A DNA stretch of 13,817 nt from a virus. Its lineage: Duplodnaviria; Heunggongvirae; Uroviricota; Caudoviricetes. This document shows positions 3,736-8,141 of the stretch, in pieces (positions within the stretch are counted from its first letter, which is position 1; every line of letters starts with the position of its first letter). A model generated the notes under the pieces. It ran no database searches. It saw nothing but the letters and a program-made list of their open reading frames with translations, and was not told where the DNA came from. Where the stretch lies: the IMG/VR virus record IMGVR_UViG_2645727640_000022. One strand, given 5' to 3'. A program made the translations under genes and the position numbers.

Positions 3736-5357
3736 CAGGCCTGTCTCCCTAGCAGCTCCCAGATGTTCAGGGCTGAATTCATTGGGGCATAGTTGATCAT
3801 CACCGAGTCGGCAAGGTTTGGCGATCGGGTTCCATCAGGCTGTTTATCAATAACGATTTTTCCCACACCATTAATGGAATAGGTCGGCTGCGAAAGCTCG
3901 ATGATGAGTTTATCTTTGAGTGCCATGCTACTGCTGATTGAGATGATTTCGTCCGGGTTGTAAGCCATACCTTCAACCACGGCGCGCCAGGTATTCTGAA
4001 AAAGTTTACGTAACCGCCACCAGCTCTGGGCTTTGGCGTTAGCGAAGAAGTCCTTGTTCAGACGTGCTGCTTGCCCGTTGTCCCCGCGAACAGCTTCATC
4101 ATCCGGATCAAATACCGCGCCACTACCTCGAAACGGTGTGGCAAGTATTGACGGTCGACGCGCAGCGTTACGCAGTTCGTTGATAGCGCGTGCATCGCCG
4201 CGAACGCCAGCGCCCAGCCCGTCCTCGTCAAAGCGAAACTCTTCGAGGTTGTCCTGTTCGCAAAAGCCGAAAACCTTCTCGACGGACTGATAAATGTCGC
4301 TGCCCACACCGGACCATTCCCGCACATTTTCCAGGAGGAAGCCATGACGGGTGGAAAAGGCATTTTTGTCCCTGCCTTCGTCGGCGACATCCATCGCGCC
4401 AAGTCGTTTGCCTGTTGGCTGGATACCCAGTTTGATATGCGCATCAACGGCAGCCTGTACCCATTCGGATGGAATCAGAACGCCTTCCGCTGATGCGCTG
4501 TAGTTCAGATCAAGTTCCTGTGCCACCACCACCGGATTATCGATTTTCTCGCATTCCCTGCGATACCACTCTTCATCCTTGCGAGGATCATCCCGCCAGT
4601 GGAATGTGAATACCGGTATCTTCCCGCCATGACGCTTCTGAGCGAACGGGTTAGCCATGCCGTTAACTGAACTCAGGTCGATACGGCAACGCGTCGTTTG
4701 TGACAACGCCGCATCAATCAGCAGAGGACGCTGAAGGAATGCAGCCTCATCAACCAGATAAAGCGTGGTACGGTCACCACGACCAATATTATCGCCAGCC
4801 TCGCCTTTGATAACGGCACCAGTTTCAGGAAACTCAACACGCATATATGGCGCGTGCTTCTTCTCACTCCACGAACCGCGAAACTCTACAGGTAGCGTTT
4901 CCACGAACTTGCGTGCCTTCCAGAACAATGCTTTCGGGTCACCAGTGCTGTCGACGTATTCCTCTTTACGGGAGCCGAAACCGATAACCATTTCTTTGTT
5001 GAAGAGACAAAGCGAGCAGGCCAGTCCGATCGCGGTCCAACTGAGCCCCATTTCACGGGATTTTTCGGTAATACCATTCTCCCGATTGCCCCAGCGTTCC
5101 ATAATCCAGTGGATCCACTCCTCCTGCTTAGGGAAGAGTAAAAACGGAATGGTCACCGGCAGGCCATAATCAATATTACGCGGGTCCGTTGTCATGCCCC
5201 AGTCGATGATGAACTGAGCCGGATTGGTTCGGTAAAACTGCTTCAATACGGGCAATATTTCAGGATTCTGGCGAATGCGCTGTAGGCGTTCCATCCGCCA
5301 TTCAAAAACCATCTGGTAATCAGGATGTTTAAAATCGAAGGGGAATGGTAACGGCAT
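3735..5357 (-). CDS. Terminase large subunit
   Basis: 540-aa ORF starting 2 nt after the terminase small subunit stop and overlapping the portal start; size and position in the terS-terL-portal order. N-terminus [44 protein letters not shown]… resembles enterobacterial prophage large terminases as I recall them. Confidence 0.8.
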
Positions 5358-5993: not shown

Positions 5994-6518
5994 TTACCGG
6001 GACTGTTCTATTTGTCGGACACCAGCCAACTGGTTATTCGCCTTCTCGATGGCAGCCAACAATGGGTTAATCCACAGAACAGCCTGGCAATATGTCAACG
6101 TTCTGGTGGTAGTGGCACGATCACCGGCTGAGTCAATGTCCCCGGAATCGGCGTGCAATGCGCTGGCGCGTAAACGGTTCGCGTAGTTGAGCAACCCGAC
6201 AGCAATATCAACAGGAACAGGGAAATCACAGTTCTTTTCACGGAGCAGAACCTCACGGTATTTGATGACTGTCTTCTCGTGACCGATGTCGACCAGAGAA
6301 TTTAATCGGCTTGCGTTTTCTGCTATCTGGTTAAAACGATTGAAGTTTAATGCCTGATTAGCTATCACTTTCCCTTGATATTCAGCTTCACCTTCCGCTT
6401 TATCAGCCCGCAACTTTTCTGCCTGATACTTGCTGTGGTAATGGTTTGCAGACCAGACGAGCGCCCCAAAGGCAGAGAAGAAAAATGCCGCGATGACAAT
6501 CTTATAAGTCAGCTTCAT
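5994..6518 (-). CDS. Rz: Rz-like i-spanin (inner-membrane spanin subunit)
   Basis: 174-aa ORF overlapping the 3' end of the endolysin gene by 17 nt; N-terminal transmembrane segment (KIVIAAFFFSAFGALVWSANHY, compare lambda Rz …WAVNHY…) followed by a long predicted helical region; third gene of the holin-endolysin-spanin cassette. Confidence 0.65.
   Translation of the reverse strand: MKLTYKIVIAAFFFSAFGALVWSANHYHSKYQAEKLRADKAEGEAEYQGKVIANQALNFNRFNQIAENASRLNSLVDIGHEKTVIKYREVLLREKNCDFPVPVDIAVGLLNYANRLRASALHADSGDIDSAGDRATTTRTLTYCQAVLWINPLLAAIEKANNQLAGVRQIEQSR
6095..6241 (-). CDS. Rz1: Rz1-like o-spanin (outer-membrane lipoprotein), embedded in the +1 frame of Rz
   Basis: Hand translation of the +1 frame inside Rz gives (GTG start)KRTVISLFLLILLSGCSTTRTVYAPAHCTPIPGTLTQPVIVPLPPER-stop: signal peptide with lipobox LLSG-C, then a short proline-rich mature region with a second Cys, as in lambda Rz1. 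GAGG lies 9 nt upstream of the GTG at 6241-6239. Below the 60-aa cutoff and non-ATG start, hence absent from the ORF track. Confidence 0.5.
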   Translation of the reverse strand: MKRTVISLFLLILLSGCSTTRTVYAPAHCTPIPGTLTQPVIVPLPPER

Positions 6519-6978
6519 TTACCACCCCACCAGCATCTTTAAACCTGGAAATCAGGTCACCGATTTTATGTTCATACTGACCGTAACCTGCACCAGGTAA
6601 CGACGCCCAGATATTGCTGCAACGGTCGATTGCCTGACGAATATCGCCACGGTCAATCATCGGTAAAGCGCCACGCTCTTTAATCTGCTGCAGCGCCACA
6701 GCGTCCTGACTTTCTGGCGAAAAATCTTTCAGGCCAAGCTGCTTACAGTAGGCATCCCACCAGCGTGAAAGAAGCTGATACCGGCCTGCGGCTGTTGATT
6801 TAAGCTTCGGGTTTAGCGTGACAAGTTTGCGAGGGTGATCGGAGTAATCAGTGAACAACTCACCTCCGACGATAACGTCATAACCGTGATTACGTGTCGG
6901 TTGTCGCCCGTTATCCGTTCCTTCTGACCATGCCACCATATCCAGGAAAGCTTTACGTTGGGAATTTAGTGTCTGCAT
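6502..6978 (-). CDS. R: Endolysin, lambda R-type lytic transglycosylase
   Basis: 158-aa protein that matches my recollection of phage lambda R almost residue-for-residue over most of its length (…NSQRKAFLDM.AWSEGTDNGRQ.TRNHGYDVIVGGELFTDYSDHPRKLVTLNPKLKST.AGRYQLLSRWWDAY.KQLGLKDFSP.SQDAVALQQIKERGALPMIDRGDIRQAIDRCSNIWASLPGAGYGQ…). Start is 1 nt after the holin stop. Confidence 0.9.
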   Translation of the reverse strand: MQTLNSQRKAFLDMVAWSEGTDNGRQPTRNHGYDVIVGGELFTDYSDHPRKLVTLNPKLKSTAAGRYQLLSRWWDAYCKQLGLKDFSPESQDAVALQQIKERGALPMIDRGDIRQAIDRCSNIWASLPGAGYGQYEHKIGDLISRFKDAGGVVNEADL

Positions 6979-6981
6979 GAA

Positions 6982-7323
6982 TTACTCCTTAGAGCCACCA
7001 AACTTGTTACCGATTACTCGCATTGCAGCCCCACGAATAGCATCGACACCGCTCAGCCCAACACCACCACCAATGGCAACAGAAAGCGATTTAGGCCATC
7101 CGACATACTCAAGAGCGGATGCAAAAGTCAGCGTCAGAGCACCACAGAGCAAAATCTCAAGCGTTTTTCGTTTCCAGCCGCCGCCACCGCCAAAATAGGC
7201 AATGCGCAAGCCAGCCATAACAATTGACATAACCACTGCGCCCAACGGCGTATCTCCACGCCACCAACTTTGTAAGAGTTCCAGTAAGTCAGGCCAGGAA
7301 TGAGGAGCATTGTGCATTTTCAT
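6982..7323 (-). CDS. Class I holin with lambda S-like dual-start motif (Met-Lys-Met)
   Basis: Three hydrophobic segments (LGAVVMSIVMAGLRIAYF, TLEILLCGALTLTFASALEY, LSVAIGGGVGLSGVDAI) and a charged C-terminus. The ORF track start (7341) has no ribosome-binding site; the ATG at 7323-7321 is preceded by GGAGGTG 6 nt upstream and begins MKMHNAP…, two Met codons separated by Lys as in lambda S107/S105. Confidence 0.7.
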   Translation of the reverse strand: MKMHNAPHSWPDLLELLQSWWRGDTPLGAVVMSIVMAGLRIAYFGGGGGWKRKTLEILLCGALTLTFASALEYVGWPKSLSVAIGGGVGLSGVDAIRGAAMRVIGNKFGGSKE

Positions 7324-7424
7324 ACTTCCCACCTCCGCCATTACGGGGTGTTGTTGAAAGGCGGGCCCTGCGTATACGCCCGTAGGATTGGGTTATGAGC
7401 CGTCCTTCGGTGGGCCCTGAATAC

Positions 7425-7447
7425 AAAAAAAGTTCGCCATAGCGAAC
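7425..7447 (-). terminator. Rho-independent terminator on the minus strand, ~100 nt upstream of the holin start (tR'-like)
   Basis: Minus-strand RNA: GUUCGC-UAUG-GCGAAC followed by UUUUUUUGUAUU (plus-strand stem 7432-7437/7442-7447, A-run 7425-7431). Confidence 0.5.
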
Positions 7448-7674
7448 CTTGTTAAATTTGTTAAAAAAGGAGGTTATTTAACATAATGTACGTTATAGGA
7501 ACCACACGATCCCCGCTCGCAATAGATTTGCGATGAAAGGCCTATTTAATCAACTTAAGTGGTCCAGAATGACGAAATTCGAGTGAATAAAAGGTGCATA
7601 AAAAAGGGCAAAAACTGCATAGCGTTTTTTCGCAGCGAAAGCCCTGTTTTATTAACTTTTCCCCAGAATGGGGC
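7448..7674 (-). promoter_or_regulatory. Late regulatory region (expected site of the Q-dependent late promoter and Q-utilisation site); promoter hexamers not resolved
   Basis: Lies between the Q operon terminator and the tR'-like terminator, directly upstream of the lysis cassette; contains several hairpins (e.g. CCCCAGAATGGGG at 7661-7673, AGGGC…GCCCT at 7605-7645). I could not assign -35/-10 elements confidently. Confidence 0.3.
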
Positions 7675-7701
7675 AATAAAAAAGGCCCCCTTGCGGAAGC
7701 C
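7675..7701 (-). terminator. Rho-independent terminator on the minus strand, downstream of the 113-aa ORF
   Basis: Minus-strand RNA: GGCUUCC-GCAA-GGGGGCC (7-bp stem including two G-U pairs, GNRA tetraloop) followed by UUUUUUAUU; ~70 nt after the ORF stop at 7769. Confidence 0.45.
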
Positions 7702-7768
7702 TCTTCGTGATGAACTGTTTTCAACAGATATCAGGCTAATCGGCTTTTTGGAATTCCACAACTATTTT

Positions 7769-8110
7769 TTATCTTACCTTGATGCCTGATGCCGTCAGAT
7801 GTTTACGACAGTCCTGAATACCTTCGTTATAACCCGCATCGTAGAAGCTATCCGGCTTTGCCTTCAGCGCAGGAAGCGTAACGCTGGTAGCTCTTCGTTC
7901 GGCCAGAACACCTGCCTGAAAGAGTGTCCACATCAACTGAACTGCTGAATCACAGTAAGTAACATCTTCACTGTACAATTCTCGTTCAATCCTGATGCCA
8001 AGTTGAGCCTTCATTGATGCGCCAATATTACCTTTGACCTGCAACGACAGGTCTGGGTACCTCTGTTCCATGAAGCTTTCAAATCTGTTGCGAACGCTGA
8101 TCAGAGCCAT
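7769..8110 (-). CDS. Hypothetical protein, 113 aa, in the Q-to-lysis moron slot
   Basis: ORF with AAGGGAA Shine-Dalgarno ~8 nt upstream of the ATG at 8110, 31 nt after the Q stop; followed by its own terminator. I do not recognise the protein (MALISVRNRFESFMEQRYPDLSLQVKGNIGASMKAQ…). Confidence 0.6.
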   Translation of the reverse strand: MALISVRNRFESFMEQRYPDLSLQVKGNIGASMKAQLGIRIERELYSEDVTYCDSAVQLMWTLFQAGVLAERRATSVTLPALKAKPDSFYDAGYNEGIQDCRKHLTASGIKVR

Positions 8111-8141
8111 CTGGTTCCCTTACGTGATTGATTGCTGGATA

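Follow-up and report, generated by a model that had tools for sequence, protein, structure and literature searches.

A dispensable PF26207-family gene between the antiterminator gene Q and the putative late promoter of a temperate Escherichia coli phage

The closest described systems to the locus that we analyze here are the Q cassettes of phage 21 and of phage 933W. In a Q cassette, the late promoter (PR') adjoins the Q gene, and first a sigma-dependent pause element and then a terminator come between PR' and the late genes; PF06530 is the Q21/933W family of Q proteins (bioRxiv 10.1101/651190). In the sequence record of 933W, a putative pR' overlaps the 3' end of Q, and a putative tR' lies beyond it. 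Some phages also carry cargo between Q and the holin gene, such as the stx and tRNA genes of 933W or nmpC of DLP12. A moron, in the sense of Hendrix, is an extra gene between two genes that are adjacent in relatives; it has its own promoter and terminator, often has an odd base composition, and is expressed from the prophage.

We examined a 13,817-nucleotide stretch of viral DNA (IMG/VR record IMGVR_UViG_2645727640_000022; hereafter, the window), which is a segment of a compact temperate-phage genome and is read on the minus strand. The window encodes a cI-like repressor with HTH and S24 peptidase domains on the plus strand (11766-12440). On the minus strand, and in order of their reading, it encodes a Cro-like HTH protein (11424-11624), a PrimPol/DUF5906 primase (9225-11420), a Zn-ribbon ORF of 76 amino acids (8610-8840), and the antiterminator Q (8142-8564; 140 amino acids). 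The first recognizable late gene is a lambda-family holin (6982-7341; PF05106, E = 2e-26; phrog_126), which is followed by an endolysin (6502-6978) and an Rz-like spanin (5994-6518), all on the minus strand. Beyond the spanin, the gene order continues with the small and large terminase, the portal, a Mu-F-like protein, and a DUF2213 protein. The Q protein matches PF06530 over the full length of the model (positions 1-118 of 118, E = 5e-42) as well as phrog_79, and its identity to Q from 933W and from other Stx phages is 42-46%; the solved Q21 chains gave no direct sequence match to it. Together with a putative PR'/tR' unit and the lysis and terminase genes downstream, this places it in the Q21/933W family.

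A prophage of E. coli O55:H7 DEC5E matches the region at 100% identity, those of E. coli O103:H2 12009 and of ETEC H10407 match it at 99.9%, and the prophage is present in EHEC, ETEC, and UPEC genomes. A scan of 6900-9300 against Rfam gave nothing above threshold, and no tRNA genes were found in the window. Iterons crowd the gap that separates the primase gene from the Zn-ribbon ORF (8860-9200): there are nine copies of GGTGACRG in the window, versus 0.69 expected, and those in the gap form inverted groups around an AT-rich center (TATATATA). This gap is probably a replication origin that is served by the adjacent PrimPol/DUF5906 protein. At its right edge, the window contains a truncated fragment of an IS3-family transposase (13398-13778, minus strand; rve_3, 126 amino acids). 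Beside this fragment is an ORF of 181 amino acids (12868-13413) that has CxxC pairs and no family match.

A preliminary description of this DNA had reported an ORF of 113 codons between Q and the holin gene, without giving its strand. This ORF (7769-8110; 342 bp from ATG to TAA) is on the minus strand. That description had also noted a good ribosome-binding site and tight spacing behind Q, and we agree: 31 nt separate the stop codon of Q from the ATG of the ORF, and a Shine-Dalgarno-like AAGGGA, as read from the sequence, lies 5 nt before that ATG (8121-8116, minus strand). At its other end, a 427-bp non-coding stretch separates the ORF from the holin gene. The ORF is a genuine gene under purifying selection, because a comparison with an 86%-identical homologue in another IMG/VR locus (L022) gives dN/dS = 0.06 (dS = 1.29 and dN = 0.08).

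The ORF is variably present among close relatives of the prophage. Among 5,426 complete genomes of E. coli, the neighborhood is found in 144 and an intact ORF is found in 62-63. The intact copies are at least 99% identical across 62 genomes. We sampled 48 rows evenly from the 144 matches and found that 10 of these have a 286-bp internal deletion of the ORF, while another 12 have a different Q module and no ORF. The deletion corresponds to positions 7826-8106 of the window plus 5 bp of microhomology, so that the ATG and the last 19 codons remain. The same deletion is carried by the isolated phages vB_EcoM-689R2, 611R5, 683R1, and 606R2, which implies that the ORF is not needed to make a phage. 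Truncated or frameshifted forms of the ORF also occur (P0020, P0021, and L169). Thus, the ORF is a dispensable accessory gene and does not encode a core protein. This is in line with the preliminary description, which had called it moron-like: it is present in only some of a group of near-identical prophages.

The deletions and frameshifts among the relatives might instead be taken as a sign that the ORF is a non-functional or decaying reading frame. This is highly improbable and is already refuted by the signal of selection (a dN/dS of 0.06 with a dS of 1.29). Also, the reading frame is intact in those 62 genomes with at least 99% identity, and its motifs are conserved across genera. One decayed copy could be mistaken for something else. 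In a metagenomic protein of 143 amino acids (P0019), the C-terminus of Q reads into an internally deleted homologue of the ORF and continues through TTGTGGAATTCCAAA (translated as CGIPK), which is a block of DNA that we will describe below. We considered whether P0019 could be a fusion of Q and the ORF product (a "Rosetta stone"), but given its internal deletion and lost stop codon, it is probably a decaying locus.

The preliminary description had called the protein unrecognized. It is true that the ORF product has no matches in our scans of Pfam-A or NCBIfam, and that it does not match the models in PADLOC or the solved folds of anti-defense proteins. However, the copy of Pfam-A that we scanned does not include a model for PF26207 (none of 47 members of that family matched it either), and the homologues of the ORF are annotated with PF26207. 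The ORF belongs to this catalogued phage family, which is also known as phiTE_015. Specifically, precomputed annotations assign PF26207 (Phage_phiTE_015) to two 99%-identical proteins (P0001 and P0002) and to all 14 close homologues (with the assignment graded as weak for P0013 and P0008), and an identical protein from E. coli is named "phiTE_015 family protein" in RefSeq/PGAP. When we built a profile from the ORF product and its relatives, including distant members, it matched 727 proteins at E ≤ 1e-3. All 120 of the matches that were listed carry PF26207, and among the matches shown, the source names are only "hypothetical protein" or "phage protein." We found no papers about phiTE_015 or PF26207.

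The homology between the ORF product and undisputed members of PF26207 is evident at the profile level, and the conserved motifs align. The ORF product shares with HK022 gp59 and with ORF53 of Pocitis76 an N-terminal R..FE, a central Y....VQ..W that is followed by V.LP, and a C-terminal GYN.(A/G)I..C...(A/S)GIKV. Like the members of the family, which are phage-encoded proteins of 88-113 amino acids, the ORF would be part of an early-right operon. Unlike typical members, the ORF product belongs to a rare and divergent branch that has FQAG where the family has WQAS. At roughly residues 27-50, it also carries an insertion whose length, about 7-20 residues, varies with the relative that it is compared to. 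A search with a profile for the close branch found just 16 representative clusters among 1.84 billion proteins. Homologues at 36-50% identity are found in Rahnella, in Yersinia, in Vibrio phage Pm34, and in metagenomic phages, and 26 invariant columns are common to 13 homologues, including the motifs AVQLMW and YDAGYNEG. Among the distant members, HK022_59 (gp59) and ORF53 belong to the nin regions of HK022 and of Hafnia phage Pocitis76, respectively, and others lie within arrays of small genes in Pseudomonas and Salmonella phages. The ORF sits after Q, whereas HK022 gp59 and Pocitis76 ORF53 sit upstream of Q.

The ORF product is predicted to be a soluble protein of 12.7 kDa with a pI of 8.6, and we found no catalytic motif, DNA-binding motif, or membrane segment in it. 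In its AlphaFold2 model (pLDDT 79.6), the main helices are at residues 6-17, 55-74, and 89-107, and there is also a short helix (29-34) as well as short strands, with a small sheet. No solved or similar structure was found for the protein or its family, and a search of a viral fold library matched only members of PF26207 (Seszw and Henu5). In other words, of the profile and structure searches that the preliminary description had recommended, the former identified the family and the latter did not find a similar fold beyond the family's members. A pattern scan of genome contigs gave 39 matches, and none of these were confirmed.

Two other labels for the protein were considered and rejected. First, a weak match in BFVD hinted at a relationship to Ead/Ea22-like proteins, but when we compared the ORF product to the Ead/Ea22-like protein of Pocitis76 with hhalign, the probability was 0.05. 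Second, in PHROGs, the ORF product matches families without a known function and, in part, a family labelled as "head closure" (phrog_15831, a head-closure or connector label), and nothing else. In that match, only residues 60-112 align, to positions 9-60 of the 112 in the profile. The label is also contradicted by the location of the ORF, which is in the regulatory region and upstream of the lysis and terminase genes.

Immediately downstream of the ORF, the sequence suggests a complete cassette of late promoter, leader, and terminator on the minus strand. The putative -35 element of PR' (TTGTGG, 7761-7756) begins 7 nt past the stop codon of the ORF, within the invariant block TTGTGGAATTCCAAA, and the putative -10 element (TAGCCT, 7738-7733) is 17 nt from it. 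An extended -10-like sequence with an upstream TG (TGATATCTG, 7733-7725) is a candidate for the sigma-dependent pause element. These are followed by an intrinsic terminator (7706-7675), which we read as tR' and also as the end of the early transcript of Q and the ORF. Its hairpin (7701-7675) has a GC-rich stem and a GCAA loop and is followed by U6. A simple terminator scan did not list this hairpin, but the RNA from 7730-7660 is predicted by RNAfold to have a minimum free energy of -26.6 kcal/mol (z = -3.45), and 0 of 200 shuffled sequences folded equally well. We infer that PR' is at 7761-7733, that tR' is the hairpin at 7706-7675, and that the leader is about 50 nt. If so, then the 90 bp that follow the stop codon of the ORF are where the late promoter and the tR' of this group of prophages should now be placed.

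Related loci carry the same elements. The block TTGTGGAATTCCAAA is identical in the window and in L022, L003, L004, L025, L030, L054, L118, L098, and L176. In the Q21-type loci that contain a homologue of the ORF (the window, L022, L003 from Rahnella, L004, L025/L026, and L030), the block lies 2-8 nt past the stop codon of the ORF, and it is invariant even though the ORFs of these six loci are only about 45% identical. In Q21-type loci that lack the ORF (L054, L084, L138, L159, L118, and L098), the block lies 11-17 nt past the stop codon of Q instead. In L176, it lies inside the 3' end of Q, and the stop codon of Q is within the -10 element. Across 9 distinct loci, a -10 element of the form TAnnnT is found at a fixed spacing of 17 nt (the variants are TAGCCT, TAATCT, TATTCT, TAACCT, TACTCT, TAGTCT, and TAATGT, so that A2 and T6 are invariant). 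A GC hairpin and a run of T follow 26-50 nt after the -10 element in 8 of 9 distinct cassettes, and the sequence of the hairpin varies by locus.

Furthermore, the cassettes of L003, L004, L025, L030, and L033 align with the putative pR' and tR' that are annotated in 933W. (The row for L118 was left out of this DNA alignment.) Downstream of the -10 element, the aligned segment has the form TGnTAAGAGTGGTYAC...CAC...hairpin, and all five of these loci and 933W have TGnTAAGAG where the window has TGATATCTG. The window and the Q cassette of phages 21 and 933W have several features in common: their Q proteins belong to one Pfam family, there are promoter-like hexamers, TG precedes a -10-like repeat, and a terminator lies about 50 nt further on. 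But in the window, a gene of 342 bp parts Q from the putative PR', while Q and PR' abut or overlap in 933W, L176, L054, and L118. Also, the window's cassette shares just the -35 element, the spacer, and the -10 element with the 933W-like cassettes. The downstream half is different, and the window's putative pause element or Q-binding (QBE) segment differs from the 933W-like consensus of TAAGAGTGGTYAC...CAC.

Prophages with another Q help to locate the sites that are specific to each type of Q. L165 has a different allele of Q and no ORF, and it is about 96% identical to the window everywhere downstream of position 7650 or so. Because E. coli prophages with the other Q allele share everything downstream of this point, the Q-specific sites must be upstream of it, in 7768-7655. 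The spacer between the putative tR' and the holin gene (7342-7674, minus strand), with about 96% identity to these ORF-less prophages, is independent of the type of Q. For the same reason, we rejected another potential arrangement, with a late promoter near 7520-7485 and with the hairpin at 7450-7429 as tR': this region is common to prophages with different Q alleles. The spacer does contain that second terminator-like hairpin (7450-7429, identified by the terminator scan and by folding), and it contains three -10-like hexamers in tandem (TATAAC, CATTAT, and TTAAAT, at about 7507-7485). In L165, the 3' end of the different Q allele contains a direct repeat, GCGCTACGC-N7-GCGCTACGC (1886-1925 of L165), just upstream of TGGTATGAG, and a terminator follows 30-60 nt later. 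This repeat is possibly the binding element for that Q, with its PR' embedded in its own coding sequence.

These comparisons change the interpretation of the hairpin. In the preliminary description, the ORF had its own terminator (7675-7701), and the late regulatory region came only after it. The hairpin does exist and would stop unmodified early transcripts, but it seems to belong to the leader cassette of PR'. Because the same cassette is present with or without the ORF, the hairpin is not a private terminator of the ORF. And rather than preceding the late regulatory region, the hairpin would be the tR' of that region, which begins 7 nt past the stop codon of the ORF.

Alternatively, the ORF could be inside the late unit. 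PR' would overlap the 3' end of Q (TTGCGT-16 nt-CATAAT, at about 8167-8140), and the ORF would be in the leader and would be expressed constitutively, even in a lysogen. There are indeed promoter-like hexamers at the end of Q, with 8 of 12 matches, which is below the threshold of the promoter scan. Also, the -35 element of PR' lies within the 3' end of Q in both 933W and L176, and in other phages, a homologue of the ORF lies downstream of PR'. However, the CATAA includes the stop codon of Q, conservation of these hexamers does not extend to L003, L004, or L025, and all six of the ORF-containing Q21-type loci have the TTGTGGAATTCCAAA cassette downstream of the ORF. We therefore view a PR' upstream of the ORF as quite improbable.

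Instead, the ORF appears to lie between Q and PR'. The preliminary description had put it in the classic cargo site of the Stx genes, tRNAs, and nmpC, but in the record for 933W, the cargo is downstream of PR' and tR', and by our assignments the ORF is upstream of PR' and so upstream of the slot for Stx and nmpC. The earlier proposal that the ORF is expressed with Q fares better: co-transcription is almost certain, because the gap of 31 nt does not contain a terminator hairpin and because the gap is just 0-26 nt in relatives (the stop codon of Q overlaps the start of the ORF in L004, and the gaps are 15 nt in L003 and 26 nt in L025). We found no promoter-like site in the 31-nt gap; the only candidate is in the coding sequence of Q and is not conserved. 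Since the ORF lies between Q and the putative PR' and there is no hairpin in the gap, the early-right operon should end with this gene, which should be silent in a lysogen. The ORF is similar to the stx and tRNA cargo of 933W and to nmpC of DLP12 in that it is non-essential, is located between Q and the holin gene, and varies among similar phages. The difference is that stx and the tRNAs of 933W come after PR' and tR' and require Q, while the ORF should be made with Q and not because of Q.

How often is the junction of Q and PR' interrupted? Among 64 non-redundant Q21/933W-type loci from IMG/VR, which were ranked by their similarity to the window's Q so that the class with the ORF is over-represented, 35 have a terminator 26-190 nt past the stop codon of Q with nothing in between, 8 have an intervening ORF from PF26207, and 7 have an intervening and unrelated ORF of 214 amino acids. 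So, as for the variation in the Q-to-holin interval that the preliminary description had proposed to survey, the ORF is variably present, and most of the Q21/933W-type cassettes lack it. The 214-aa ORF comes directly after a Q21/933W-type Q in L187-L191, L199, and L205 (49-693 nt past the stop codon of Q), and it looks like another cargo at the Q junction. Overall, this shows that the classic junction of Q and then PR' can be split by a gene.

Is the ORF then a moron? The preliminary description proposed a self-contained moron in the cargo slot between Q and the holin gene, with its own terminator and with a role in host takeover or anti-defense. As with a moron, the ORF parts elements that adjoin each other in relatives: Q and the TTGTGGAATTCCAAA cassette adjoin or overlap in L054, L084, L118, L098, L176, and 933W, and the ORF splits them in the window and in five other loci. 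Also, relatives differ by the presence or absence of the ORF, a terminator-like hairpin follows it, and small early proteins of phages are often counter-defense factors. On the other hand, the ORF does not have its own promoter or its own terminator, as the hairpin is part of the PR'-leader-tR' cassette, which is retained with or without the ORF. Its base composition is not atypical either (47.4% GC overall and 48% at third codon positions, versus 45-54% GC for the neighboring genes). It has no match to a model of defense or anti-defense, and it lies upstream of PR', while the Stx genes and tRNAs of 933W lie downstream of tR'. "Moron-like" is apt only in the sense of extra DNA between otherwise adjacent elements, and we think that a self-contained moron is unlikely.

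The relatives of the ORF also adjoin other types of Q. Among homologues with 36-47% identity, those of Vibrio phage Pm34, L028, L029, and L031 come after a Qlambda-type antiterminator (PF03589); those of L035-L041 come after a DUF1133 protein, which is distantly similar to Q21; and that of L034 comes after the gene for a HicB antitoxin. In L033 and in the loci with a PF03589 or DUF1133 protein, the gap between Q and the homologue is 107-195 nt and contains promoter-like hexamers (for example, TTGCGT-17 nt-TAATCT-CTC-TAAATAGTGGGG), and in most of these loci, there is a hairpin terminator in the gap as well. This terminator places the homologue directly behind tR', with no other gene in between. 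So, in the phages with the Qlambda-type or DUF1133-type proteins and in L033, the homologue occupies the slot after tR', unlike the ORF in the window. In that position, the homologue would be a late gene and would depend on Q, which implies that the timing of expression is not conserved and which weakens any argument from timing.

Some of these loci have other features near the homologue. There are tRNA genes shortly downstream of it in L031 (4423-4724; Gln, Met, and Gly), L004 (5562-5637; Gly), and L034 (4475-4549; Asn); those in L031 and L004 follow the Q/PR'/tR' junction, as in Stx phages. In L029, there is a remnant of a 933W/Q21-type cassette downstream of the homologue (GTGTAAGAGT...GTCACACAGCTTATTGAATTAAT and a hairpin, at 4306-4410), along with the locus's own promoter and terminator upstream of the homologue. 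As L029 has a lambda-type Q, this suggests a mosaic joint, where the ORF travelled with a Q21-type PR'.

The recurrence of the family beside Q could mean that it is a component of the late switch, in which case this branch of PF26207 would modulate the loading of Q, sigma-dependent pausing, or RNA polymerase at PR'. Homologues at 36-50% identity do adjoin the Q cassettes of three Q families: PF06530 (the window, L003, L004, L022, L025-27, L030, and L033), PF03589 (L002, L028, L029, and L031), and DUF1133 (L035-L041). They are either just before PR' or just after tR', and P0019 runs from the C-terminus of Q straight into a homologue. However, most Q21/933W-type cassettes do not have the ORF (35 canonical junctions versus 8 of 64 with the ORF), and phages in which the ORF is deleted have been isolated as phages. 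The homologue in L034 is next to hicB and not Q; distant members of the family are kilobases upstream of Q, in the nin region, or are in phages with no Q seen nearby; and P0019 looks like a decaying locus. The conservation of gene order in lambdoid phages explains the persistence of this position without any functional link. We regard a role in the late switch as improbable. A more specific proposal, that the Q-adjacent branch is an unnoticed accessory factor that was recruited beside three unrelated families of Q and that adjusts the loading of Q, sigma70-dependent pausing, or termination at PR'/tR', is marginally less probable again. We attribute the tendency of the family to hug the Q/PR'/tR' junction mainly to the inertia of gene order in mosaic lambdoid genomes, although the association leaves a small chance of a functional link to the late switch.

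We propose that the ORF, which is a real accessory gene from a divergent branch of PF26207 and is dispensable to its small temperate phage of E. coli, was probably inserted between Q and PR'. It would be the last cistron of an early-right operon that comprises cro, the primase, the Zn-ribbon ORF, Q, and the ORF, so that its product would be made together with Q and would be repressed in a lysogen. Unmodified early transcripts would end at the hairpin at 7706-7675, which would also be the tR' of the PR' leader of about 50 nt, and Q-modified polymerase would read through tR' into the genes for the holin, the endolysin, Rz, and the terminase. As for the molecular function of the ORF product, we suggest with low confidence that it acts by protein-protein interaction on a target in the host or in a defense system. 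It might bind a host or defense component that is needed around the switch from early to late expression; such targets are typical of the genes of the nin region and of early accessory genes. Although the prophage is found in pathogens, there is no indication that the ORF has a role in virulence.

In summary, assigning the ORF to a catalogued but uncharacterized family is mostly a tidy-up, and the ORF itself is an unremarkable accessory gene whose location, the junction of Q and PR', is a little unusual. Across phages whose Q proteins are unrelated, the same family of small genes turns up either before or after PR'-tR'. If this association is functional, then the family would include a modulator of the textbook Q switch. 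Otherwise, PF26207 is one more conserved family of soluble proteins of about 100 amino acids that are candidates for interactions between phage and host.
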